NCBI GenBank assembly: GCA_964621755.1
Contig: CAZUPI010000004.1
Coordinates: forward strand, 10,821-74,820
Reading direction: 5' to 3'
Length of the DNA: 64,000 nt
Source: an uncultured Ruminococcus sp.
GTDB taxonomy: Bacteria; Bacillota; Clostridia; Oscillospirales; CAG-272
Positions 4,083 through 40,344 of this stretch are shown in pieces. Positions within the stretch are counted from its first letter, which is position 1. Every line of letters begins with the position of its first letter. Under the pieces are notes generated by a model. That model saw only the letters and a list, made by a program, of their open reading frames with translations. It made no database searches and was not told where the DNA came from. The position numbers were made by a program, and so were the translations under genes.

Positions 4083-5334
4083 TTATATCAGCTCCGCCTG
4101 TATTTCTGCGGCTGTGATTTCTCTGGGGGTCACGCCTTTTTTTACTGCCAGTGCAGCGGCAATTCCGGCGGCTTCCCCGATTCCCACGCAGATTGGCATG
4201 ACGCGGTAGTTGGAATGCGCTATATGCGTTCCGCTGATATTCCGTCCCGACAGCAGCAGTCCTTCCACGCCTTCGGGGAGAAGACAGCCATAAGGAATGG
4301 TGTAGCCCTTGGGCTGCTTCCACTGGTGCTGAATGCCGGTTGCGTCCAGCCCGGCGCCGGTCAGGTTGTGAACGTCAAAATTGAAGTGCGCGCCCCGGAC
4401 AACCCAATCGTCAAAAACGCGTGCGGTGAGAATGTCGTTTTCGTTCAGTGTGTACGCGCCCTTGAAGTGGCGGGTCTCACGAATGCCCATCAGAGAACCT
4501 GCGCTGATGATGTAGCAGTTCCGGAAGCCGGGGACGTATTCCCGGAGATATGCCACAATTGCGGGCATCTGGGAGCGGCATACCAGCTCAGCTCTGGTCA
4601 GGTCTTCCGCAAGTGTACCGTCGATTTCGGTGCAGTTGGTCATATTGCAGGTGACGATCCCCGGCAGGATAGGGGATATGCTTCTTTGCCACAGCCTGCA
4701 GTTCTCCGGCTGGGGTCTCATATGTAGACTCAAACGAGCCGAGGAAGACCGCGTGCTCCGTATCCACGCCGTCTACCTTGAACATTAGGGTTGCAGGCTG
4801 CATTTTTCCATCGCTCTCCCGTCCTTTGTAATACGGGACCCTGGCGAAGGCGGCAACGTCTCCGTCCCCTGTTCCGTCCACGAATATCTTTGCGGTAAAC
4901 ACACGCCGTCCGCTTTTGCTTTCGGTGATGACGCCTGTGATGCGGTTTTTGTCCATCACGACGCCGCAGACGAACGTGTACAGGAGGACGGTCACTCCTG
5001 CGTCCGCCAGCATCGCAAGATAGACGTCCTTGAGGTTTTCCGGATTGATGGTAGGCGTGATCTTCCCCTTTCTTTCGCCCTCATTCCGGTCTGCCATTGC
5101 CTGAAGCAGTTCGGTATAGAATTTGCTGTGTACCGTGCCGGTGAAATGGCTCATAAGACCCGAAGTCGAGATTCCGCCTACGACGTTGCTCCACTCGAGA
5201 AGCAGAACCCTAGCGCCATGCCGTCCGGCTTGAATAGCGGCGGACACGCCGGCGGGTCCGGAACCCGCAACGATAACGTCATACTCTCCCGCAACGGGAA
5301 GGTCTTTTGCCGGTTCATGAATATAGTTTGTCAT
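4083..5334 (-). pseudogene. FAD-dependent oxidoreductase (FAD_oxidored-type) split by one frameshift
   Basis: The N-part ORF 4588..5334 has the dinucleotide fold YDVIVAGSGPAGVSAAIQAG. The C-part ORF 4083..4733 continues the same family in another frame (..GIRETRHFKGAYTLNENDIL.., GRNISGTHIAHSNYRVMPICVGIGEAAG). The frames switch around 4650-4700, near C4/G4 runs at 4659-4662 and 4672-4675. Confidence 0.7.
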
Positions 5335-5355
5335 GTTGTTTCTCCTTGTAAATCA

Positions 5356-5730
5356 TCACGATTTTATATAATCCTCGCATGCTTGGATGTACGCGAGAAC
5401 GTTTTCAAGCGGTACTTCCGGTTCGAGCAGATGGGTCGGGCATACATAAAGTCCGCCGTGGCTTCCGGCAATATCAAGGTTTTTGAATACTTCACGACGT
5501 ACCTCATCCGGCGTACCGAACGGCATGACCGACTGGATCCCAATGGTTCCGTGAAAACTGAGACGGTCGCCGTATTCCTCGTGAATTCGCGCAAAATCCA
5601 TGCACTCCGGCTGTACCGGGTCGAGAACGTCGACTCCCGCTTCAATTAAATTCGGGATCAGTTCCGTTACGTGTCCGCAGGAATGATAGAAAATCACGAT
5701 TTCCGGGTTGATTGCCCCATGCGGCGTCAA
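5356..5730 (-). pseudogene. C-terminal fragment of a uroporphyrinogen-decarboxylase (URO-D/MtaA-like) family protein
   Basis: Translation ..INPEIVIFYHSCGHVTELIPNLIEAGVDVLDPVQPECMDFARIHEEYGDRLSFHGTIGIQSVMPFGTPDEVRREV..GGLYVCPTHLLEPEVPLENVLAYIQACE matches only the C-terminal third of URO-D family proteins. The N-terminal two thirds are absent. The boundary near 5730 is approximate. Confidence 0.6.
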
Positions 5731-6079: not shown

Positions 6080-8035
6080 TTATTCAAACATCTTCCGACT
6101 GCCGAATGCGTTGTAGATTTCTTCGAACCAGTTGTTGGTTGTTGGGACCGGGCGGACGGGGATGAAATCGTTGACGGCGGTGATTGCTTTGGAGGTGAGA
6201 AGGAGACGGGTGCGCTGGACTTTGGTGCGGTGGATTTGGTCGATTTCGGGCCGGTTTTCGATGAGGTAGGAGCCGCGTGAGGCGCCGCCGTCGTCGATGT
6301 AGGAAAGAATCGCGGACAGAACTGCACAGCGGGTGACGAGAGTGTCGTAGTTTATGGCGAGCTCTATCAGAGCAGCGTGGTCGGCGGCCCGATTTTTTGT
6401 GAAAAAGGACGAGAGTTCCTGCACGGTTTCGGTGTGGAGCGCGCGGACACCGGCGGGGGAGCGGAGAAAAGCCGCGTATTTGTCATGCAGAAGGGCGCTG
6501 TGTGCGCGTTTCGCAAGGACTTGGGTGCGGTCGAGCCTTACGCCGTCCGGGTCAGTCAGAAGATGCGAATATTTTGTGCATTCGGCGATTTGAGCAGTCA
6601 GGGCGTCTGACAGTATTTCGCCGGACTTTATATCAGGTGACATCGCGCATGCGCGTTCCGCCGCGCGGTAGGAGCCGACCTGCGTAGAATTAAGCGCAGA
6701 GCCGCCCGGTCGTTTGACGCCGAATACACCGCCGCACTCGCCGACCGGATAGAAATCACGGAGGGTGGGATTTTCGTACCAGATGTCGTTTTCGAGACCG
6801 CCGTTCATGTGCTGTGCCGCAACATGGATTTCGAGCATATCCCGCTCAAGGTCGACGCCGTGGTCAAGGCATACGCCATATGCGCGCTCGTTGATGGCGC
6901 GGAGACGCTTGATGGGGGTATCCTGCAGTGCGCCGGAGCTGAAGAGATAGTTGTATACTTCATCGCCCAGAGCTTCAGCGGTCATGGGAAGGTGGTCGAG
7001 GGAGGCGGGATTGCGGCGGAAATCCAGAAATACCCGTCTGCCTGCCATCGTTTCGTTGTATACTGCGATGTCGATAAGGGAGGAGCCCTCGCCGGGGGTC
7101 AGTTTTTCGGGATCGAAGGGCCACTGGTAGCCTTTGCGGAACACCGCTTTTATACTGCATAAAGGGGTGAATATATCGTATAAAAATTCACGTTCAGCTC
7201 CGGCGGAATCGATTGATATATAGCGCGGAATCGCCTGCTGAAACGAACCGGACAGGTTCCAGCGGAACGGTACCGAGGCGATGCCGTACTGGGATTCGGT
7301 CAGGTTTACAGCGGACGCACCGGCAAGAAGGGGGGCGCCGAGGGAGCAATTCTGGCTTTCCGGATAGACGGAGCTGTAGTACAGCGCGGAGGGACCGCCG
7401 GTTGCCCAAATTACGGCGCCGGACAGAAAAACTGTGAGCCCGGCGGGATTGTCAGGGGTAATCTCAGATTGAGAGAGGCAGACGACGCCGCGGGCATGAT
7501 TGTCTTCCGTCAGCACGTGGACCGCACGATAGCCGTCGTAAAGGGGGATTTTTGCGGAAAAACACGCCTTTTCGAGGGCTTCTGTCATGTATTTGGAGGT
7601 ATATGGTCCGCAGGAGGTAGCACGTCCGCGCTCGTCATGGTCGGTTTGGTAGCCGGGATATTCGCCGAAGCGGTCGTGGGGAAAGGGAACACCGAGGGCA
7701 ACCAATCCGAAGAAGGCGCGGAGAGAGCCTGCGGCTTCGGTCAGAGCGAGGTCCCCGTGCATGGAGCCCATAGAAAAGTAATCCTTTGCCATTTCCGCTG
7801 CGCTGTCGCTTTTGTAGGCGGACGTGGATTGTTTATAGTAGGTTTGTTTATCCGACCCGGTGTTGCGGGAGGTTCCCATCATTCGCCCTTCGGTGATGAC
7901 GGCTACCTCAGCGCCCAGCCGGTGTGCGGTCAAAGCGGCATTATATGCAGCCGCGCCGCTTCCGATTACGGCAATTTTGCATAAATATACAGAAACGCGA
8001 GTCCCTGCGACGGTGAGATATTTTTGATTTTTCAT
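6080..8035 (-). CDS. FAD-binding protein, fumarate-reductase/succinate-dehydrogenase-flavoprotein-like (FAD_binding_2 type), stand-alone
   Basis: Intact 651-aa ORF. It has an N-terminal Rossmann motif KIAVIGSGAAAYNAALTA, then EGRMMGTSRNTGSDKQ and ..IWATGGPSALY.. blocks typical of this flavoprotein superfamily. No Fe-S or membrane partner is adjacent. Confidence 0.65.
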   Translation of the reverse strand: MKNQKYLTVAGTRVSVYLCKIAVIGSGAAAYNAALTAHRLGAEVAVITEGRMMGTSRNTGSDKQTYYKQSTSAYKSDSAAEMAKDYFSMGSMHGDLALTEAAGSLRAFFGLVALGVPFPHDRFGEYPGYQTDHDERGRATSCGPYTSKYMTEALEKACFSAKIPLYDGYRAVHVLTEDNHARGVVCLSQSEITPDNPAGLTVFLSGAVIWATGGPSALYYSSVYPESQNCSLGAPLLAGASAVNLTESQYGIASVPFRWNLSGSFQQAIPRYISIDSAGAEREFLYDIFTPLCSIKAVFRKGYQWPFDPEKLTPGEGSSLIDIAVYNETMAGRRVFLDFRRNPASLDHLPMTAEALGDEVYNYLFSSGALQDTPIKRLRAINERAYGVCLDHGVDLERDMLEIHVAAQHMNGGLENDIWYENPTLRDFYPVGECGGVFGVKRPGGSALNSTQVGSYRAAERACAMSPDIKSGEILSDALTAQIAECTKYSHLLTDPDGVRLDRTQVLAKRAHSALLHDKYAAFLRSPAGVRALHTETVQELSSFFTKNRAADHAALIELAINYDTLVTRCAVLSAILSYIDDGGASRGSYLIENRPEIDQIHRTKVQRTRLLLTSKAITAVNDFIPVRPVPTTNNWFEEIYNAFGSRKMFE

Positions 8036-8212
8036 ATTTGTTTGATTGATTCTCCTCGTTTCTGCATCGCTTATTTCGGATATCCTGCGATCGTAGTCAT
8101 TATATCATACCGCTCCCAAAATAGCAAGCCGGGACGCGCAGTTTATAAAAAAGCTGATGCGAGCGCCGTGTCGGACTGTGTAAAATTATAGAAAAATTAA
8201 ATTTTAAATATA

Positions 8213-8241
8213 TTGACATAAGTGACGGGATGTTGTATAAT
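8213..8241 (+). promoter_or_regulatory. sigma-A type promoter (TTGACA-17-TATAAT)
   Basis: TTGACA at 8213-8218, an exactly 17-nt spacer, and TATAAT at 8236-8241. It lies about 48 nt upstream of the 8289 start. Confidence 0.6.
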
Positions 8242-8288
8242 TATAGTGTATAAGAAAAATTTGTAATTCCCATATGAAGGAGACGATT

Positions 8289-9617
8289 ATGAAAAACAGT
8301 GTAAGAAGACTTTCCGCTCTTCTCGCAGCGTTGACAATGGGTTCAGCTTTTGCTGTTACGGCTTCTGCGATAGACACAAATTTCATCAAGGTTTCGGGGT
8401 CTGGCACAACGAGCAGTTCAACGGAATACGCGATTTATGAAAACGGCGGTTACTACTTCAAAGGCTACTACTATATCGACGATGACGCGGTTGTATCAGA
8501 GGCCGCAAAAACAGTCGCATCGACTGGCGAAACAACGTATGTCCTCAAGAATGACAATTCTTGGATCAAGACCGGAACGAGCGGCATCCTGCCGTCCACT
8601 TCCACTTCTACCGTTACCAAAAGTCCTTCGACTGTTTTCGTAACAAAGCCGACTGCAACAAAATCGGTTTCCACCTACAAGAACTATTCCGTCATTAGCG
8701 GCGGCAAGTACTACTCTTACATGGACGCGGAGAGTGAACTCAAAAAGTACTTTGAGAATAACACCTATGCGATGTTCCTGTACGAAGGGGACGAGAGATT
8801 CTTCTGCTCCGATGTATACTTTGTAAGCACCGACAACGACGTTGTATATTATGATTACACCGAGGGCAAACTGGTGGCGAATGAAGCCGGTAACGCATAT
8901 GTTTACGTTTATACAAAGGGCGGCATACCGTTCTTCCGTCTAAACGTGTCTGTTATCCGTACCCTGTCCACGACCAGCAAACCGTCCGTAGTACAGCTCA
9001 TCCCCGATCAATGGCACCTCGACGAAGCGGGCGATACTACCGGCTTCACCATCAAGTGTGACCAGAAATATAATGCCAATGACTTCACCCTCTCCGTTGT
9101 ATACGGCAACGACATCGCGTCCATCGTCAATGGTAAGCTCAAGACCACAGGCTGCGGTCCGATCGTCGTTCGTGTAAGCAACAAGAGATACGGCAATGTG
9201 TACGGCGAAGCGCTCATTTATGTGGGCAAGTATGTTTCTTCGATTTATGACGGCTACTATACCACAACCGGCGGCAAGGTCGTAACAAAGTATTGGGACT
9301 ACGACATTTCCGACCTGTGCAATAGCTATATCGCCGGTTGGATTAAGTCCGATGAAGGTACGTTTATCCCGGTGATTAAAAAGAGCGCTGGCACGGTTGT
9401 CAATGCAGACGGCACCACAAAACAGACCACAGTGGTAAGCTATGAAAATGTGAGCGTAGCGGACCTCATTCGTCAGGCATACGGCGATAAAGAGGAGCTC
9501 GCAACCATCATCACAAAATACAATCTCGCAAAGAACGGCAAAACCGTTGTCAATTCCAGTGATGATTTTGACTACGTGAGATTCATCCTTTCGCAGGCAT
9601 ACAGCTTCGGCAAATAA
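8289..9617 (+). CDS. secreted protein of unknown function (signal peptide, Ser/Thr-rich linker)
   Basis: AAGGAG RBS lies 7 nt before the ATG at 8289 (the ORF-track start 8274 lacks an RBS). The signal peptide reads MKNSVRRLSALLAALTMGSAFAVTASA. A PSTSTSTVTKSPSTVFVTKPTATKS linker follows, and the remainder looks beta-rich. A terminator follows the gene. Confidence 0.6.
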   Translation: MKNSVRRLSALLAALTMGSAFAVTASAIDTNFIKVSGSGTTSSSTEYAIYENGGYYFKGYYYIDDDAVVSEAAKTVASTGETTYVLKNDNSWIKTGTSGILPSTSTSTVTKSPSTVFVTKPTATKSVSTYKNYSVISGGKYYSYMDAESELKKYFENNTYAMFLYEGDERFFCSDVYFVSTDNDVVYYDYTEGKLVANEAGNAYVYVYTKGGIPFFRLNVSVIRTLSTTSKPSVVQLIPDQWHLDEAGDTTGFTIKCDQKYNANDFTLSVVYGNDIASIVNGKLKTTGCGPIVVRVSNKRYGNVYGEALIYVGKYVSSIYDGYYTTTGGKVVTKYWDYDISDLCNSYIAGWIKSDEGTFIPVIKKSAGTVVNADGTTKQTTVVSYENVSVADLIRQAYGDKEELATIITKYNLAKNGKTVVNSSDDFDYVRFILSQAYSFGK

Positions 9618-14086: not shown

Positions 14087-17000
14087 TCAGTCTTTTTTCA
14101 CGGAGATTGTTACTTTTTCGCCGTTTACGTCCCATTCCTTGGTATATCCCTCGATGGGTTCGAAGGTCAGCGTATCGCAGAGAACGGTCCCTTTCAGCTC
14201 GTCAGAATCGGCACGGAGGATTTCCTCAACCTTTGCGCTGCCGGTCACTGATACGGTGATATGATCGGTTACGACAAAGTCAGCTTCCTTGCGCATGGTC
14301 TGGATTTTGGAGATAACTTCGCGCACGAAGCCTTCACTTATCAGCTCGGGGGTGAGGTTGGTATCAAGGGCGACTGCGACGCCGCCTGCAGCAAGGCTGA
14401 AGTAGCCGGGCTTCTGCTTGACGTCGATGAGAAGGTCGTCACGGGTCAGTTCAACCGGTGTACCGTCGAATTCGAGGCGGAGCATGCCGGTGGATTCGAG
14501 CTCAGACATGGCCTTATTGCCGTCGAATGCTTCATCCTGGAGGGTCGTTCTGATTTTGCCGAGGAGCTTGCCGTACTTCGGTCCGACCGTTTTGAGGTTC
14601 GGCTTGAAGGAGTACGAAGACAGGGCGGACACGTCGGCGGTGAAGCGGACTTCCTTAACGTTCAGCTCGTCGCGGATGACGTCGGAGTAGATTTCGCCGA
14701 GCGCTTTGCCGTTTTCGTCCGCTTTGACGTACATAGCGGACAGCGGCTGACGGTTTTTGATATTCGCACCGTTTCTTGCTGCGCGTCCGAGAACGACGAC
14801 GTCGACGACGGCTTTCATATCGGCTTCGAGCGCCTTGTCAATCATGGATTCGTCCGCGGCGGGATAGGAGCAGAGGTGGACGGATTCCGGCGCATTCTTG
14901 TCGACGGAGCATACGAGGTTGCGGTAGATATCGTCCGCCATGAACGGAATCATCGGAGCGGCCGCTTTTACAATGGTGACGAGCGCGGTGTAAAGGGTCA
15001 TATAAGCGGCGATCTTGTCGTCGGTCATGTCGGTGCCCCAATAGCGTTCGCGGGAGCGGCGGACATACCAGTTCGACAGTTCGTCGACAAATTCGGACAG
15101 CGCCTTCGCGGATTCGGGGATGCGGTAGCCTGCGAGGTGGGCGTCGACGGTCTGGACGGTGGTGTTCAGCACCGAGAGGATATACTTATCCATGACGCTG
15201 AGCTTGCAGTCGGCGAGGGAATATTTGGTCGGGTCAAATGAATCGATATCGGCATAGAGAACGTAGAAGGCGTAGGTATTCCAAAGGGTGCCGAGGAATT
15301 TGCGCTGTCCTTCGGTGACGGCCTTGCCGCTGAATCGGGACGGCAGCCACGGTGCGCTGTTGGTATAGAAATACCATCTGATAGCGTCCGCGCCGTAGGT
15401 GTTCAAGGCATCGAACGGATCAACCGCGTTTCCTTTGGATTTGGACATCTTTTGACCGTTTTCATCCTGCACGTGACCGAGCACGATGACGTTTTTATAC
15501 GGTGCGCAGTCGAACAGGAGGGTGGAGATTGCCATAAGGGAATAGAACCAGCCACGGGTCTGGTCGACCGCCTCGCTGATGAAGTCTGCGGGGAACTGCG
15601 CTTTGAAAAGATCTTCGTTTTCGAAGGGGTAATGGTGCTGTGCGAAGGGCATGGAGCCGGAGTCGAACCAGCAGTCGATGACTTCCGGTACGCGGTGCAT
15701 CTCGCCGCCGCACTTCGGGCACTTTATCGTGACTGCGTCGATATAGGGGCGGTGAAGCTCGATATCGTCGGGGCAGTTATCGGACATTTCCTTCAGCTCC
15801 GCGATGCTTCCGACAGGATGGCGGTGTCCGCAGGAGCATTCCCAAATGTTGAGCGGGGTGCCCCAATAGCGGTTACGGGAGACAGCCCAATCCTGAACGT
15901 TCTCCAGCCAGTCGCCGAAGCGTCCTTTGCCGATGGATTCGGGAATCCAGTTTACGGTATTGTTATTCTTAATAAGGTTGTCGCGGACCTTGGTCATTTC
16001 GATGTACCACGATTCGCGTGCGTAGTAGATCAGAGGAGTGTCGCATCTCCAGCAGTGGGGATATTCATGCTCAAACTTCGGCGCGTCGAACAGTTTGCCC
16101 TGCGCGCGGAGGTCGTCGAGGATGATCGGGTCGGCTTTCTTGACGAAGATGCCTTCGTACGGGGTATCGGCGGTCAGATTGCCCTTTGCGTCGACGAATT
16201 GAACAAACGGGAAGCCGTATTTTTTGCAGACGCGCGCGTCGTCTTCACCGAATGCGGGCGCCATGTGAACGATACCGGTACCGTCGCTCATGGTGACGTA
16301 GTTGTCGCAGGTGACGTAGTGCGCCTTTTTGTTCTGCTTTGCGGCGGCGATTCCGGCGCATTCGAACAGCGGCTCATATTCGCGGTATTCGAGGTCGCGG
16401 CCCGTATATTCCTCGACAATAGTATATGCGGGGGCGTCATCGGTCTTGAGTTTTCCGAGAACGGCGTCGAGAAGGGCTTTTGCCATGTAGTAGGTATAGC
16501 CGTCTGCGGCGTTGACCTTGCAGTAGGTTTCGTCGGGATTGACGCAGAGCGCAAGGTTGGAGGGAAGGGTCCACGGTGTGGTTGTCCACGCGAGGAAGTA
16601 GGCGTCCTCACCTTTTGCTTTGAAGCGGACGACAGCGGAGCGCTCTTTTACGGTTTTATATCCCTGTGCGACCTCCTGAGCGGAGAGGGGGGTACCGCAG
16701 CGCGGGCAGTAGGGAACGATTTTGAATCCCTTATACAGAAGGCCCTTATTCCAGATTTCCTTGAGCGCCCACCATTCGGACTCGATGAAGTTATTGTCAT
16801 AGGTTACATAGGGGTGATCCATATCGGCCCAGAAGCCGACGGCGCCGGAGAAATCCTCCCACATCCCCTTGTATTTCCAGACGGATTTTTTGCACTCGTT
16901 GATGAACGGTTCGAGACCGTACTGTTCGATTTGGTCCTTGCCATCGAGGCCGAGCTTTTTCTCGACTTCGATTTCGACGGGGAGACCGTGGGTATCCCAG

Positions 17001-17251
17001 CCGGCTTTACGCGGAACGTCGCAGCCCTTCATCCAGTGGTAGCGCGGAATCATATCTTTAATGACACGGGTGAGAACGTGACCGATATGCGGCTTACCGT
17101 TTGCGGTCGGGGGGCCGTCGTAGAAGGTGTAACCCGGCCGTCCTTCGCTTAGCTCGAGCTGTTTTTCGAAGATTTTGTTCTCGTTCCAGAACTTCAATAC
17201 TTCGCGTTCGCGCTCAACAAAATTTAAGTTAGTTTGAACTTTATTGTACAT
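14087..17251 (-). CDS. ileS: isoleucine--tRNA ligase (type 2)
   Basis: 1054 aa. HIGH motif PTANGKPHIGHVLTR, KMSKS motif KMSKSKGN, and a zinc-type CPKCGGEM insertion. It is preceded by an Ile T-box leader. Confidence 0.97.
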   Translation of the reverse strand: MYNKVQTNLNFVEREREVLKFWNENKIFEKQLELSEGRPGYTFYDGPPTANGKPHIGHVLTRVIKDMIPRYHWMKGCDVPRKAGWDTHGLPVEIEVEKKLGLDGKDQIEQYGLEPFINECKKSVWKYKGMWEDFSGAVGFWADMDHPYVTYDNNFIESEWWALKEIWNKGLLYKGFKIVPYCPRCGTPLSAQEVAQGYKTVKERSAVVRFKAKGEDAYFLAWTTTPWTLPSNLALCVNPDETYCKVNAADGYTYYMAKALLDAVLGKLKTDDAPAYTIVEEYTGRDLEYREYEPLFECAGIAAAKQNKKAHYVTCDNYVTMSDGTGIVHMAPAFGEDDARVCKKYGFPFVQFVDAKGNLTADTPYEGIFVKKADPIILDDLRAQGKLFDAPKFEHEYPHCWRCDTPLIYYARESWYIEMTKVRDNLIKNNNTVNWIPESIGKGRFGDWLENVQDWAVSRNRYWGTPLNIWECSCGHRHPVGSIAELKEMSDNCPDDIELHRPYIDAVTIKCPKCGGEMHRVPEVIDCWFDSGSMPFAQHHYPFENEDLFKAQFPADFISEAVDQTRGWFYSLMAISTLLFDCAPYKNVIVLGHVQDENGQKMSKSKGNAVDPFDALNTYGADAIRWYFYTNSAPWLPSRFSGKAVTEGQRKFLGTLWNTYAFYVLYADIDSFDPTKYSLADCKLSVMDKYILSVLNTTVQTVDAHLAGYRIPESAKALSEFVDELSNWYVRRSRERYWGTDMTDDKIAAYMTLYTALVTIVKAAAPMIPFMADDIYRNLVCSVDKNAPESVHLCSYPAADESMIDKALEADMKAVVDVVVLGRAARNGANIKNRQPLSAMYVKADENGKALGEIYSDVIRDELNVKEVRFTADVSALSSYSFKPNLKTVGPKYGKLLGKIRTTLQDEAFDGNKAMSELESTGMLRLEFDGTPVELTRDDLLIDVKQKPGYFSLAAGGVAVALDTNLTPELISEGFVREVISKIQTMRKEADFVVTDHITVSVTGSAKVEEILRADSDELKGTVLCDTLTFEPIEGYTKEWDVNGEKVTISVKKD

Positions 17252-17262
17252 AAAAAATTTGT

Positions 17263-17289
17263 TTTTCGGGGAAATGATTTTCCCGAAAA
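17263..17289. repeat. palindromic hairpin (family member R2) between the T-box terminator and the ileS start
   Basis: TTTCGGGGAAA-TGA-TTTTCCCGAAA, an imperfect palindrome. The flanking CCCCTTTCCAAAAA half-site resembles the family core. Confidence 0.5.
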
Positions 17290-17320
17290 CCCCTTTCCAA
17301 AAACATTATGCAGCGTAAAA

Positions 17321-17547
17321 CAAAAAATCCCGGACTTTGTCCGGGACAGAAAAATTCTGCTATACCACTCGCACACATGATACGTCTCCGCAATAACGGT
17401 CGGAATCCGGTATCGGCTACTTCCGGCGTCTGCCGATTTCACCATACGGCTCGGGAATGATTTTCCGCGGGGCATCGTACCGGCTCTCACCAAATCCGGC
17501 TCTCTTGGACTAAAACCTTACGCGTACTCTTTTCCGTCTTTGCCTTT
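17321..17547 (-). promoter_or_regulatory. T-box riboswitch leader, isoleucine-specific (controls ileS)
   Basis: Read on the minus strand: Stem I distal elements AGAGAG..TTTGGTGAGAG. A putative specifier GGAAA-ATC-A (ATC = complement of 17459-17461). T-box-like GCGAGTGGTATAGCAG (17357-17372 region). Terminator GTCCCGGACAAAGTCCGGGATTTTTTG (17348-17321). Confidence 0.75.
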
Positions 17548-17554
17548 GGACTAT

Positions 17555-17583
17555 ATTATATAATATATTGTGCGGTTTGTCAA
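17555..17583 (-). promoter_or_regulatory. sigma-A type promoter for the T-box/ileS transcript
   Basis: Minus strand reads TTGACA (17583-17578), a 17-nt spacer, then TATAAT (17560-17555). Confidence 0.6.
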
Positions 17584-17629
17584 GTGAAAATATTTAAAAA
17601 CCTCGAATCTTTGGACACAGGCGGGAAAG

Positions 17630-17965
17630 TCAGTCCACCACATAGACCGCAAAAGGAGTATTTATCTGTGCAGGATCGGTTTCCATGATCTCTCCGTCAA
17701 AGACGACGCGGATTTCGTCCCCGACCGTTACCTCCGGGAAACCGTCGGCAGCTATCGTTTCGCGGCTGATGAATACCTGACCTCCTACCGACATGCCGGA
17801 TTGACCTTTGTCGGTGCATTCCGCAAGGATGCTGCTGTCGCAAACTTCGAGAACCTTTGCGTTGAAGTAGTCCTGTCCGTTTTCGTCGACCTCGTCTTTT
17901 GCGCAGCAGACGAGAAGCAGCGCAATGACAATCAGTGTGAGCATTAAAGTGAAGATTCTTTTCAT
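17630..17965 (-). CDS. small lipoprotein of unknown function
   Basis: AAGGAGAT RBS before ATG 17965. The signal/lipobox reads MKRIFTLMLTLIVIALLLVCCAKDE. The mature part is about 90 aa and beta-rich. The upstream part of the ORF-track ORF is rejected. Confidence 0.65.
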   Translation of the reverse strand: MKRIFTLMLTLIVIALLLVCCAKDEVDENGQDYFNAKVLEVCDSSILAECTDKGQSGMSVGGQVFISRETIAADGFPEVTVGDEIRVVFDGEIMETDPAQINTPFAVYVVD

Positions 17966-18057
17966 ATGAGATCTCCTTCCGAAAATTATGTTATTTAATA
18001 GACGTTTCCCGTATAGCAAAAGTTCCCCCGCAATAAAATAAATTTTCACCTGATTTA

Positions 18058-18086
18058 TTGACATATCACGGGGAAACTGCTATACT
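18058..18086 (+). promoter_or_regulatory. sigma-A type promoter with extended -10 (TTGACA-17-TGC-TATACT)
   Basis: TTGACA at 18058-18063, a 17-nt spacer ending in TGC, and TATACT at 18081-18086. This gives a leader of about 170 nt before the 18265 start. Confidence 0.5.
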
Positions 18087-18264
18087 TAAAACACATTTAA
18101 AAAGTTTTAGAAAAACGGATCAACCCCGTGACCGAGCGTCCAAATGCCAGCCACCCACAAAGATCCAAGTTCTTTGCGCGGCTTTCTTTCAGGAAAGCGC
18201 GTTCCCTTTTCCATACAATTTGTAAAAACAAAATTCCTATATAACACCAAGGGAGGAAACCAAA

Positions 18265-19248
18265 ATGTTAAAAGTAGCAATGCTCTCGAAGTGGCATGTT
18301 CATGCCGGCGGTTACGCCAACTTCATCAAAAATTGCGGAAAGTGCGAAATTGTAGCCGTATGGGACGATAATACCGCACGCGGCGAGAGCTGGGCGAAGG
18401 AGCTCGGATGCGAATTCATCCCCTGCCTCGATACGCTCCTCGCGAGAGACGATATCCAAGCGGTTATCTGCGACGCACCGACGACAGCGCATCACGATAT
18501 CCTCGTGAAGGCCGCAAGGGCGGGAAAGCACATCTTCACCGAAAAGGCGCTCTGCCCGACAGTTGCCGAATGTCTCGACGTGAAGAAGGCCATTGAGGAA
18601 GCCGGCGTCACCTTCGTTATCAGCTATCCGCAGAGAGGCAGACCGTGCGTACAGTTCGCAAAGCGCATGATAGATGAGGGCGCGTTTGGAGATGTGACCC
18701 TCGTTCGTACCCGTGACGCGCACTCCGGCGTATCCGGAAACTGGCTCCCGGATTATTGGTTCGAAAAGAAGGACGCTGCCGGCGGTGCGATGATGGACCT
18801 CGGCTGCCATCCGATGTATCTGCTCGCTTACTTCCTCGGCAAGCCGAGGAGAGTGACCGGTATGTTCACCTCGCCTTACGGTAAGCCGGTTGACGAGAAC
18901 GCGGTTGCGATCGCAGAGTTCGCGGGCGGCGCGCTCGGCGTAGCAGAAACTGGATTCGACTCTCACAACTCGCCGCAGACCATCGAAATCTACGGCACAA
19001 AAGGCTCGATGATTGCGCACGGGGAGGATGTGCAGTTCTCCAGCCAGAAGCTCGGCGGCATCGTCGGCGGATTCATCAGGCCTGACCTCCCGCACCCGAA
19101 AAAGTCTCCGCTGGAGCAGTTTGTTGATGCGGTTTCCGAAGGCAAAGGCTCACCGGAAGGGCTCGGCATAGACGACGCAATCGCCCTCACAGAGCTTCTC
19201 GAAAACGCTTACAAGGGCGACGAGAGCAATACGATTGTGAAAATATAA
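18265..19248 (+). CDS. Gfo/Idh/MocA family oxidoreductase
   Basis: GGGAGG RBS. 327 aa. The N-terminal NAD-binding fold (MLKVAMLSKWHVHAGGYA) and the EKA...-containing region (HIFTEKALCP) are typical of this family. Confidence 0.8.
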   Translation: MLKVAMLSKWHVHAGGYANFIKNCGKCEIVAVWDDNTARGESWAKELGCEFIPCLDTLLARDDIQAVICDAPTTAHHDILVKAARAGKHIFTEKALCPTVAECLDVKKAIEEAGVTFVISYPQRGRPCVQFAKRMIDEGAFGDVTLVRTRDAHSGVSGNWLPDYWFEKKDAAGGAMMDLGCHPMYLLAYFLGKPRRVTGMFTSPYGKPVDENAVAIAEFAGGALGVAETGFDSHNSPQTIEIYGTKGSMIAHGEDVQFSSQKLGGIVGGFIRPDLPHPKKSPLEQFVDAVSEGKGSPEGLGIDDAIALTELLENAYKGDESNTIVKI

Positions 19249-34826: not shown

Positions 34827-34830
34827 TAAT

Positions 34831-34864
34831 ATAGGGGGAAACTTTTCGGAAAGTTTCCCCCTAT
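34831..34864. repeat. palindromic hairpin (family member R5)
   Basis: ATAGGGGGAAACTTT-TCGG-AAAGTTTCCCCCTAT, a perfect 15-bp stem, 5 nt after the stop at 34826. Confidence 0.8.
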
Positions 34865-34891
34865 ATTTTATTTTATTCATGTGAGTTGGCC

Positions 34892-34922
34892 GGGGAGATG
34901 CTTTTTGAAAAAAGCACCTCCC
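34892..34922. repeat. palindromic hairpin (family member R6)
   Basis: GGGGAGATGCTTTTTGAAAAAAGCACCTCCC. It is near-identical to R7 at 37844 and lies between two convergent genes. Confidence 0.7.
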
Positions 34923-35010
34923 GGACCCTTCCGCAAAAACTTTTAAACAAAGTACCCTGATTAAAATTTTAAAAAAGGGTTCGGGTAGAACATATCCCCT
35001 TCAAAAATGA

Positions 35011-37719: not shown

Positions 37720-37843
37720 AAAAACAAAACACAATGTGTGACTCTGCCGCAGCTTTTTTATCCCTCGTATTCCGCGCCCTAGGTGAGATGGCGGCGGTCT
37801 GCTTAAATATAGCCCAAAATTTATCTTAACGTGAATTGGAGAT

Positions 37844-37875
37844 GGGGAGATGCTGTTTGAGAAAAGCATCTCCCC
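37844..37875. repeat. palindromic hairpin (family member R7)
   Basis: GGGGAGATGCTGTTTGAGAAAAGCATCTCCCC, with an 11-bp perfect outer stem. Confidence 0.75.
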
Positions 37876-37915
37876 GAGCTATTTTATAAACTCAACCCTC
37901 CGCGATGGCGGGGGG

Positions 37916-37944
37916 TTGACAAATCCGTAAGACTGTGGTATAAT
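37916..37944 (+). promoter_or_regulatory. consensus sigma-A promoter with extended -10 (TTGACA-17-TGG-TATAAT) in front of the lysis-type cassette
   Basis: TTGACA at 37916-37921, a 17-nt spacer ending in TGG, and TATAAT at 37939-37944. Confidence 0.65.
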
Positions 37945-38019
37945 GCACCCGATATTTCGTGAACAGATGGGCTTATTAATCATTTGTGGAGAGTTGAATC
38001 AAAAGAGAGGGGGCACCGG

Positions 38020-38217
38020 ATGAGTTACATAACAGAAATCATCATCGCGCTGCTGGCGCTCATTGGGACGATAATCGGAAGCTTTTCCGGCTTCCGGCTG
38101 ACCGCATACCGGGTCGAGCAGCTGGAGAAAAAGGTCGAGATGCACAACAATTTTGCGGCGAAAATCCCGCTCATTGAGGCGCGTGTCGAAAGGCTTGAGA
38201 AAAAGAAGGAGGAATGA
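38020..38217 (+). CDS. small N-terminally anchored coiled-coil membrane protein (BhlA/UviB- or XhlA-like holin accessory type)
   Basis: 65 aa. One TM (MSYITEIIIALLALIGTIIGSFSGF) is followed by a charged helix RVEQLEKKVEMHNNFAAKIPLIEARVERLEKKKEE. The stop lies 1 nt before the next start. Family assignment rests on architecture only. Confidence 0.5.
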   Translation: MSYITEIIIALLALIGTIIGSFSGFRLTAYRVEQLEKKVEMHNNFAAKIPLIEARVERLEKKKEE

Positions 38218-38218
38218 C

Positions 38219-38779
38219 GTGCTGCCGTATCAAGGGGGGACTGTGATGGTGACGAGCCCGTTCGGTTGGCGGACGCTGAACGGAGAGCGGGAATATCACA
38301 AGGGGATTGACCTTGTGGGGACGAACAAGAACATCGTTGCGGTGGAGGGCGGTGTGGTCGGCGTATCGACGATATTCGAACAGGCGACTGACACCACGCT
38401 GACATGGCAATGGGGGAATTACGTCCGCATTGACACAGACAGTGGGCTCAAAATGTACTACTGCCATATGTCGAAGCGCATTGCGGTTGTGGGACAGCGT
38501 GTAAAAGCGGGGGACATCCTCGGCGTGGAGGGGAACACCGGCTACAGCTTGGGTTCGCACTGCCACTTTGAGGTGCGGAATAATGCCGGAGTGTCCCTTG
38601 ACCCGTCTCCTTATTTGGGAATTCCGAACGCAGTGGGAAGTTATCCAGTACAAGTGACGCCGGACTATGCGGCGCTGGTATGCGGGAAATGCGGTCTGGA
38701 GGAGCAGACGAAGGCGTACTTGAATGAGTACACGTATGCGTCCGACTTATGGAGGAAGTTATGGGAAGCAATGCAGTGA
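38219..38779 (+). CDS. M23 family metallopeptidase (candidate endolysin/peptidoglycan endopeptidase)
   Basis: AAGGAGG RBS lies 6 nt before GTG 38219. HxxxD motif EYHKGIDLVG and HxH motif GYSLGSHCHFEVR. No signal peptide and no wall-binding domain. Confidence 0.8.
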   Translation: MLPYQGGTVMVTSPFGWRTLNGEREYHKGIDLVGTNKNIVAVEGGVVGVSTIFEQATDTTLTWQWGNYVRIDTDSGLKMYYCHMSKRIAVVGQRVKAGDILGVEGNTGYSLGSHCHFEVRNNAGVSLDPSPYLGIPNAVGSYPVQVTPDYAALVCGKCGLEEQTKAYLNEYTYASDLWRKLWEAMQ

Positions 38780-38807
38780 AAGAGAACGAAGTTGAGGAGG
38801 ATTTATT

Positions 38808-39044
38808 ATGAAAATCGATTGGAAGCAGAAGCTAATGAGCCGCAAGCTGTGGGCTGCGGTGGTGGGAATCATTGTAGGACTTGCGGCGGCGTTCGGGATT
38901 CAGGAGAATGATTACGCGCAGGTCGCCGGGGTTGTGACGTCGGTGATGTCAGTCCTCGGGTACATCTTCGGCGAGGCGGCCGTGGACAAGGCAAGGCTCG
39001 AAAGCGGAAGCAGCGACTCAAGCACAAATCAGACTGAAGGGTAA
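38808..39044 (+). CDS. phage-type holin-like protein (two TM helices, charged/polar tail)
   Basis: GAGGAGG RBS. 78 aa. The sequence SRKLWAAVVGIIVGLAAAFGI ... VAGVVTSVMSVLGYIFGEAAV is followed by a hydrophilic tail. It sits directly after the peptidase. Confidence 0.6.
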   Translation: MKIDWKQKLMSRKLWAAVVGIIVGLAAAFGIQENDYAQVAGVVTSVMSVLGYIFGEAAVDKARLESGSSDSSTNQTEG

Positions 39045-39050
39045 ACAAAA

Positions 39051-39093
39051 CCGCCCGTTTGACCCTTTCGTCAGGCGGGCGGGAGATTTTTGT
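39051..39093 (+). terminator. rho-independent terminator after the holin-like gene
   Basis: CCGCCCG..TGAC-CCTTTC-GTCA..CGGGCGG followed by GAGATTTTTGTT. Confidence 0.6.
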
Positions 39094-39108
39094 TCACGAA
39101 AAAGATTT

Positions 39109-39147
39109 GGGGAAACTGGGATTTGCTTTGTAAATCCCAGTTTCCCC
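39109..39147. repeat. palindromic hairpin (family-like, R8)
   Basis: GGGGAAACTGGGATTT-GCTTTGT-AAATCCCAGTTTCCCC, a perfect 16-bp stem, 17 nt from the tRNA-Leu 3' end. Confidence 0.8.
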
Positions 39148-39163
39148 AAATTCACAATTATTC

Positions 39164-39247
39164 TGCCGGTAGCGGGGGTCGAACCCGCACGCTGTTGCCA
39201 GCAGCGGATTTTGAGTCCGCCTCGTCTGCCAATTCCAACATACCGGC
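39164..39247 (-). tRNA. tRNA-Leu (anticodon CAA)
   Basis: Minus strand reads GCCGGTATGTTGGAATTGGCAGACGAGGCGGACTCAAAATCCGCTGCTGGCAACAGCGTGCGGGTTCGACCCCCGCTACCGGCA. It has a long variable arm, anticodon loop CTCAAAA and acceptor GCCGGTA/TACCGGC. Confidence 0.9.
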
Positions 39248-40315: not shown

Positions 40316-40344
40316 ATTATACCACTGCCGTCCTCATTTGTCAA
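40316..40344 (-). promoter_or_regulatory. consensus sigma-A promoter for tRNA-Gln (TTGACA-17-TGG-TATAAT)
   Basis: Minus strand reads TTGACA (40344-40339), a 17-nt spacer ending in TGG, then TATAAT (40321-40316). Confidence 0.6.

Follow-up and report, generated by a model that had tools for sequence, protein, structure and literature searches.

Phage lysis cassettes kept by their bacterial hosts are already known. In PBSX, a defective prophage of Bacillus subtilis, the SOS-induced and host-retained module xhlA-xhlB-xlyA encodes a coiled-coil helper (XhlA), a holin and an endolysin lacking a signal peptide; XhlA has been proposed to assist or time the holin. In E. coli K-12, the decay of the defective prophage DLP12 has left a lysis module that continues to act on the host envelope (PMC7918800). 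Other examples are the type 10, or lysis-cassette, release systems described for Serratia (ChiWXYZ), Yersinia entomophaga, the Salmonella chitinase and C. difficile TcdE/TcdL (PMC9527704, PMC10847048, PMC10109510, PMC12485765). The present work deals with a three-gene lysis cassette lying next to a host tRNA-Leu(CAA) gene in a 64-kb stretch of DNA (the whole of which is called the window hereafter; G000:C4:10821-74820) from an uncultured Ruminococcus sp., whose genome is a metagenome-assembled genome (MAG) of 2.63 Mb in 132 contigs; it opens no new category. We consider it likely that a temperate phage of uncultured Clostridia, inserted just downstream of tRNA-Leu(CAA), left its lysis module as the segment from about 37760 to 39160, with everything else of the phage lost; within this explanation, we lean towards an operon that still works and is retained by the host for autolysis or release, and not as junk.

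The closest characterised architecture is that of PBSX, as both modules comprise three genes for a membrane-associated coiled-coil helper, a holin and a signal-less endolysin. The differences are several: in the window, the order is helper-lysin-holin, the lysin is an M23 endopeptidase and not an amidase, no structural genes are left, the helper encoded by the first open reading frame (ORF1) scores below the XhlA model and has its transmembrane (TM) helix at the N-terminus, and neither Xre nor LexA control is visible. With DLP12, the cassette shares its evolutionary status, namely that of a lysis module from a defective prophage, whereas the DLP12 module is of the Gram-negative kind, with lysozyme and spanins, and other prophage genes are still around it. 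The likeness to type 10 systems lies in chromosomal, phage-derived holin and peptidoglycan-hydrolase genes standing without virion genes, which in those systems are used by the cell; their genes are adjoined by dedicated cargo and a regulator, whereas neither a signal-less cargo gene nor a dedicated regulator was found beside the window cassette.

To follow the module through the genus, we mapped all the loci carrying a homologue of the small M23 protein (E <= 1e-25) in a set of 53 species genomes, 39 of which had one; below, genomes are labelled G, contigs C and loci L, G000 being the genome of the window. In a prophage of one species (G009:C91), tape-measure and tail proteins are followed by a phrog_1863 protein, an M23 protein, a TM protein and a holin, with a large serine integrase 3 kb beyond. 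A 65%-identical lysin is found on a contig that also carries a PhageMin_Tail gene, a tyrosine integrase and a CI (HTH_3 + S24)/Cro switch, and on two IMG/VR contigs, lysins of 58-63% identity come after many consecutive genes of structural size. In the M23 tree, orphan copies are interspersed with prophage copies, and the clade of the window protein (SH-aLRT, the Shimodaira-Hasegawa-like approximate likelihood ratio test, 93) brings together other orphans, tail-fibre-plus-lysis remnants and prophage copies. Since true prophages and viral contigs carry homologous modules behind their tail genes, we conclude, on grounds of homology, that the cassette is a phage-type lysis module of phage origin. 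Among the isolated phages in GenBank, no close relative of any of the three proteins was found; the best M23 match in that search, at 44% identity, came from uncultured faecal phage contigs.

The product of the middle gene matches PF01551 (Peptidase_M23) over residues 26-129 with 68.2 bits, for a cut-off of 28.7, and its catalytic and zinc motifs (H27-KGI-D31, YCH-M and H-C-H) align to HTGLD, YAHL and HLH of the solved M23 enzyme TagE (5j1l). Its N-terminus has no hydrophobic segment, and there is no second domain. The original prediction, which described a 186-aa M23 peptidase with HxxxD and HxH motifs, without signal peptide or wall-binding domain and with a GTG start 1 nt after the previous stop, is upheld in all its parts. 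The best PHROG matches are labelled “metallo-endopeptidase” and “endolysin”. The lack of a signal peptide, the adjoining holin gene and the homologues located in lysis modules after tail genes in prophages and viral contigs are all what defines a phage endolysin; judging from these features, the protein is an endolysin-type enzyme.

ORF3 matches phrog_297 (holin) at E = 3.3e-7 and three further holin PHROGs below E = 0.003, and its homologues adjoin lysins throughout the genus (n = 28); the 78-aa, two-TM holin-like protein announced from the sequence was thus recovered by the hidden Markov model (HMM) check. It resembles the phi LC3/Phage_holin_1 proteins (PF04531, TIGR01598) and PHROG 297 by its length of about 80 aa, its N-terminal basic K/R-x-W motif, its two TM helices and its charged tail, but it stays under both curated cut-offs, with 15.8 bits for PF04531 (Phage_holin_1; cut-off 22) and 13.1 bits for TIGR01598 (phi LC3 holin; cut-off 39.7). 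Three of the 15 members of the ORF3 family reach E <= 0.01 with these curated families, and the identity of ORF3 to a bona fide PF04531 holin is 25%. The general definition of a holin, i.e., a small TM protein with a charged C-terminus, encoded in a lysis module and matching a holin family, does apply to ORF3, with its two hydrophobic spans and charged tail. That the small ORFs are not true holins, one of the alternatives initially put forward, appears unlikely from these features.

In ORF1, a single hydrophobic span at the N-terminus precedes a coiled coil, and the protein matches phrog_1863, a phage protein of unknown function, at E = 1.1e-5; the prophage homologue located directly upstream of the lysin in G009:C91 matches the same family at E = 1.7e-12. 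A BhlA/UviB- or XhlA-like architecture had been proposed for this protein. Its N-terminal anchor and coiled coil stand; the BhlA part has to be given up, with no match to Holin_BhlA (PF10960) from ORF1 at E <= 1 and none from 27 homologues at E <= 0.01, and what is left of XhlA is a distant resemblance: the window protein had no match to XhlA (PF10779) in the Pfam search, and 7 of the 27 homologues matched it weakly (best E = 1.1e-5), alongside generic coiled-coil families. The wider ORF1 family counts 74 proteins at E <= 1e-3, with a sharply conserved core, GS.SGFRLTAYRVEQLEKKVE.HN; one member is labelled “hemolysin” in a Caudoviricetes record, and a gut phage that has terminase and P22-type portal genes encodes a 68%-identical homologue directly ahead of a bona fide Phage_holin_1. 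Both small ORFs, ORF1 and ORF3, are conserved beside M23 lysins across the genus.

The position of the cassette was then compared with the corresponding region of related genomes, where tRNA-Leu(CAA) is syntenic with CarD-like, tRNA-Gln and ftsH genes. On the cassette side, G060:C55 has the same gene order as the window, with a large haem protein, a solute-binding lipoprotein (on the opposite strand) and an anchored surface protein. From the stop codon of the anchored-protein gene to tRNA-Leu(CAA), one counts 59 nt in G060 and 55 nt in G042 vs 1444 nt in the window; by this comparison, the cassette is shown to be an insertion, absent from G060 and G042. In G009:C99, the interval measures 592 nt, and 43-nt direct repeats of the terminator enclose it, which looks like an attachment site (att) duplication by a lost element. 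A different orphan module occupies the same site in G055 (L040, G055:C80, reverse strand), with synteny on both sides; it encodes an XhlA-like protein of 89 aa, a holin of 75 aa and an endolysin of the GH25 + CW_7 type and, having been found via its CarD-like neighbour and not by the lysin search, is our sole unbiased case. Two species have been left independently with only a lysis module at this site. A large serine recombinase (Resolvase + Recombinase + Zn_ribbon_recom) lies beside tRNA-Leu(CAA) in G062 (L131, G062:C11, oriented 16820-18619). The empty sites in G060 and G042, the orphan module of G055 and the recombinase element of G062 together make this tRNA flank a recurrent landing site, and the early suggestion that tRNA-Leu served as an integration site gains from the comparison of relatives. 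In 20 further genomes of the genus, a cassette gene was found within up to 19 kb of that flank in 0 of 20.

Some minor observations concern the same flank. The insert of about 520 nt in G009:C99 (L114, oriented 18020-18615), between the surface-protein gene and tRNA-Leu(CAA), is enclosed by the repeat of the terminator hairpin (CGGAAATGAAAAAAGACAGGCTTTCAAAACCTGTCTTTTTTT) and contains a tiny hydrophobic ORF. In G062, primase- or relaxase-size genes lie upstream of the recombinase, so that a further mobile element occupies this tRNA flank. In the window, a 24-nt, 71% match between 37722 and 39043 was considered as an att candidate and taken as a chance resemblance, being A-rich.

The three forward ORFs of the window, intact and closely spaced, span 38020-39044 between the promoter (37916-37944) and the terminator (39051-39082), and all the coordinates of the three-gene cassette first described as facing the 3' end of tRNA-Leu were reproduced (Table 1). 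Each start is preceded by a strong Shine-Dalgarno sequence: GAGGGGG for ORF1, AAGGAGG for the M23 gene and GAGGAGG for ORF3. For ORF1, we kept the ATG at 38020, the longer frame from a TTG at 37984 being devoid of a ribosome-binding site; the M23 GTG at 38219 lies 1 nt past the ORF1 stop, with AAGGAGG 7 nt upstream, and M23 homologues start (MLPY...) at the same position; ORF3 starts 29 nt downstream of the M23 gene. Around the cassette, we found a sortase-type surface protein, a solute-binding lipoprotein, a tRNA and CarD, with signal peptides or lipoboxes on the neighbouring proteins. Reading the ORFs of the window, flanks included, gave no phage-like gene, the neighbours comprising uvrC-, ileS-, ftsH- and his-type genes; near the cassette there is no integrase, repressor, terminase, capsid or tail gene and no att repeat, hence no recognisable prophage. 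The reported lack of integrase, capsid, tail and repressor genes nearby agrees with these ORFs being read as host genes, and the integrase matches of the G000 genome all sit on contigs other than that of the window.

Table 1. Features of the lysis cassette and its borders, in window coordinates.
Feature	Position	Strand	Remarks
REP-like (repetitive extragenic palindromic) hairpin, palindromic	37844..37877	n/a	Left edge of the inserted segment; dispersed genome-wide family, not cassette-specific
Sigma-70-type promoter TTGACA-17-TATAAT, extended -10 TG	37916..37944	+	12/12 consensus matches
5' leader, about 70 nt	37945..38019	+	No Rfam match, no significant fold
ORF1, 65 aa, N-terminal TM helix and coiled coil	38020..38217	+	Phage lysis-module accessory protein (phrog_1863, distantly XhlA-like)
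M23 zinc metallopeptidase, 186 aa, GTG start	38219..38779	+	Endolysin-type; no signal peptide, no wall-binding domain
Holin (ORF3), 78 aa, two TM helices and charged C-terminal tail	38808..39044	+	phrog_297
Intrinsic terminator of the cassette	39051..39082	+	13-pair stem, then T-run
20-bp perfect hairpin and T-run	39105..39151	-	Likely tRNA-Leu terminator
Host tRNA-Leu(CAA)	39164..39247	-	3' flank is the insertion site

Whether such cassettes are kept by the host can be addressed with their orphan relatives in the genus. In the sister species G017 (G017:C164) and G052 (G052:C38), ORF1, M23 and TM protein genes lie at the same locus, after valS-sbcD-sbcC; the synonymous divergence (dS) of the cassette is 0.6-1.1, vs 0.5-1.15 for flanking host genes, and the ratio of nonsynonymous to synonymous rates (dN/dS) is 0.06 for ORF1, 0.11 for M23 and 0.24 for the TM protein. 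Both cassettes (L034, 10111-10139, in G017 and L044 in G052) have a perfect GAAC-N4-GTTC box in the promoter spacer (GAACAAATGTTC, GAACAGATGTTC), resembling the box upstream of the lexA gene of G000 itself (AGAACAAGTGTTTA), and LexA-type boxes are rare (12 in 625 kb); these features imply that the two cassettes would be DNA-damage-induced lysis genes under purifying selection. The tail-fibre-plus-lysis remnants of G002 and G044, at tRNA-Gly/Leu(TAG), show the same selection behaviour as this pair, dN/dS is 0.14-0.30 between the window and G010, and three further groups of M23 loci, with or without a holin, have kept their synteny across 4 to 10 species. Several orphan modules of the genus thus look SOS-gated, as far as their predicted boxes tell. 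Host retention is favoured because related orphan cassettes of the genus are vertically inherited, under purifying selection and SOS-wired; for the window itself, the intact frames and signals, while the remainder of the phage is gone, are indirect evidence in the same direction, and the operon is probably still functional. Of the alternatives initially listed, domestication is supported for the G017/G052 pair only.

Other conserved loci were encountered during this survey. At L056 (9058) and L058 (1194), tRNA-Ala(GGC), a small TM protein and a 400-450-aa M23 protein occur together in four species (G065, G046, G049 and G012), with an 11-12/12 promoter in each and a perfect GAAC-N4-GTTC box just after the -10 in two. 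Ten genomes of the genus (L065-L077) share a unit in which a zinc-ribbon/TM protein of about 193 aa is encoded divergently from a TM protein of 100-140 aa, an M23 lysin and a holin, with partly conserved flanks and, in three, an ATGACA-17/18-TATAAT promoter with TG; this unit is apparently a host-fixed lysis locus. At L076, L078, L079 and L081 (G021, G056, G020 and G007), an M23 lysin converges on tRNA-Met(CAT), with an M23 dN/dS of 0.15; in L078 and L081 a c37-cluster protein lies ahead of the lysin, that of L078 having a match to Phage_holin_4_1 (TcdE-type holin).

The promoter of the cassette, initially described as perfect, is not exceptional: the 64-kb window contains four 12/12 promoters, and the one of tRNA-Gln(CTG) also has the TG. 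Own promoters are found in front of the orphan cassettes of the window, G010, G009:C116 and G018, all 12/12 with TG, and of G017 and G052 (11/12); no such promoter precedes the copies inside prophages and phages. In G018:C102 (L043, oriented 7006-8916), a 213-aa CI-like repressor (HTH_3 + Peptidase_S24) is divergent from, and abuts, a 12/12 promoter driving XhlA-like, M23 and holin genes, with TATTGA/TCAATA repeats in the leader and no other phage genes; this locus is a minimal “repressor plus lysis” unit. The one real puzzle of the window copy is that it has no visible switch. Repression in trans, also among the initial alternatives, receives no support: no operator was found, the G000 genome holds no second copy of the window promoter and leader (only the upstream REP-like hairpin is repeated), and the promoter region has no word in common with the two S24-type loci of G000. 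A riboswitch or leader structure was dropped, the leader giving no Rfam family and a fold z of 0.53, as was Q-type antitermination based on a -10-like pause element (GATATT) in the leader, there being no terminator between promoter and ORF1. A phage PR or late promoter as its source gained no support either: real phages have a 12/12 promoter at the CI/Cro switch (L092) and none ahead of the lysis genes, and TTGACAAATC-N8-TGTGNTATAAT, searched for in viral contigs, returned more than 119 generic matches, none of them followed by a similar leader or cassette.

Likeness judged by eye extends to the leaders of three orphan modules from different genomes: L088 (GCA_052831985.1 contig, 5324-5410), L038 (8165-8250) and the window (37906-37990) have in common the promoter hexamers, a G-run before the -35 and the first 25 or so transcribed bases, with the common start TATAAT-rCrCCC-GATATT-..CGAA. 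In L088, two genes driven by this promoter come ahead of the lysis genes, one of 193 aa and one for a fibre-like GDSL-lipase. This likeness points to descent from a single “fibre plus lysis” transcription unit. The tRNA-Gln(CTG) promoter of the window (40316-40344, minus strand; TTGACAAATGAGGACGGCAGTGGTATAAT) is nearly identical to that of the cassette over its first nine bases.

From the families of the three proteins, one can propose how the operon would work. Host RNA polymerase with its housekeeping sigma factor would transcribe all three genes; the signal-less M23 endopeptidase would build up in the cytoplasm and the two-TM holin in the membrane, which would be opened upon triggering; the peptidase would then gain access to the wall and cut peptidoglycan cross-links, leading to lysis. 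ORF1, a membrane-anchored coiled coil always placed at the head of such modules, would probably assist or time the holin.

Several points weigh against a phage module inserted at this tRNA and put to use by the host. No repeat of the tRNA 3' end was found with a 22-mer allowing up to 3 mismatches or with a repeat finder run over 30-39.3 kb, a search which covers the 36.5-38 kb region and agrees with the missing repeat noted at the start, and no integrase remnant marking the arrival of the cassette was found in the window. The survey itself is biased towards lysin-containing remnants, most orphan loci having been found with the lysin as query; hence it cannot say that lysis genes outlast other phage genes. 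On the side of regulation, there is no LexA box (GAAC-N4-GTTC) within 450 nt upstream of the cassette, at up to 1 mismatch (in the leader, GAACAGATGGGC was spotted by eye with two mismatches, which is at chance level by hand calculation), and neither an adjacent repressor nor an operator was found; a constitutive holin-lysin operon should be harmful, candidates for its tolerance by the host being low translation, holin thresholding, ORF1 as an antiholin and an unassembled repressor. One has to keep in mind that, the source being a MAG, a resident prophage or a repressor could be unassembled. Finally, the exact M23 protein is a singleton, found on one contig only, and the insertion is missing from the relatives examined at the site (G042, G060 and G009); it may thus be recent, with the evidence of selection confined to the cassettes of relatives. 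The empty site in three relatives, the singleton protein and the missing regulator, added to the fact that strong promoters are common in the genome and need not signal selection, would also fit an inert leftover; in that case, deletion would have spared just this piece of a prophage that came in once the lineage had separated from G060 and G042, and the cassette would have no host function, be little expressed or tolerated by chance, and decay in time. We regard this as a possible but rather unlikely explanation: frames, ribosome-binding sites, promoter and terminator are intact while some 40 kb of phage have vanished, the lysis-module-only outcome arose independently at the same site in G055, and an orphan pair of the same clade is under purifying selection.

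A working module need not be a lytic one. In holin-dependent (type 10) export or wall remodelling, proteins or vesicles would be released, or the wall opened locally, with most cells surviving; such systems are built from orphan holin and peptidoglycan-hydrolase pairs (PMC9527704, PMC10847048, PMC10109510), and the housekeeping-type promoter of the operon and a lysin reduced to a bare catalytic domain without wall-binding module would suit this use. No signal-less cargo gene adjoins the cassette, the neighbours carrying signal peptides or lipoboxes, and the content of the module is indistinguishable from that of true-prophage modules, so that we find a non-lytic use quite improbable. A bolder extension starts from the orphan copies at large: the genus would have captured phage lysis modules repeatedly, in at least 5 lineages, as self-promoted host operons, several of them wired to DNA damage via a LexA box or a retained CI-like repressor, and the window copy would be a switch-less version, constantly transcribed and restrained by ORF1 as an antiholin, which fires only upon de-energisation of the membrane. 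We see this as speculative and unlikely in its full form; if true, the window cassette would be a stand-alone suicide module triggered by stress or infection, and not a phage relic. As for an assembly artefact, in which a phage fragment would have been joined into a host contig, it can be raised for any MAG in 132 contigs, but the contig around the 1.4-kb segment is 80 kb long, with continuous host sequence on both sides, the G+C content of the segment is host-like, and analogous orphan cassettes are present in many independent assemblies; its probability is very low.

If the phage-module explanation is right, the locus shows cleanly, with empty sites as a control, how temperate phages infecting uncultured gut-type Clostridia leave only lysis genes at a tRNA flank. 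Across one genus, such leftovers are often kept, staying at one locus with a dN/dS of about 0.1 and SOS wiring. The genus pattern bears on programmed lysis, on DNA and protein release and on phage defence in gut anaerobes. It also supplies a family of M23 endolysins that are compact, at about 180 aa and without a binding domain, together with an as yet uncharacterised helper, phrog_1863, with a possible role in lysis timing.

The palindromic hairpin at the left edge of the segment belongs to a family of about 34 nt (GGGGAGATGCT..TTGA.AAAAGCA.CTCCCC) with at least 15 dispersed sites in G000. Copies were seen in the window at 37844-37877 and 34891-34925 and on contigs C1, C5, C7, C12, C15, C17, C35, C77 and C85, as well as in G042; they look like REP-like elements or shared terminators. 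A second type of hairpin, at 34828-34867, resembles the one at 39105-39151.

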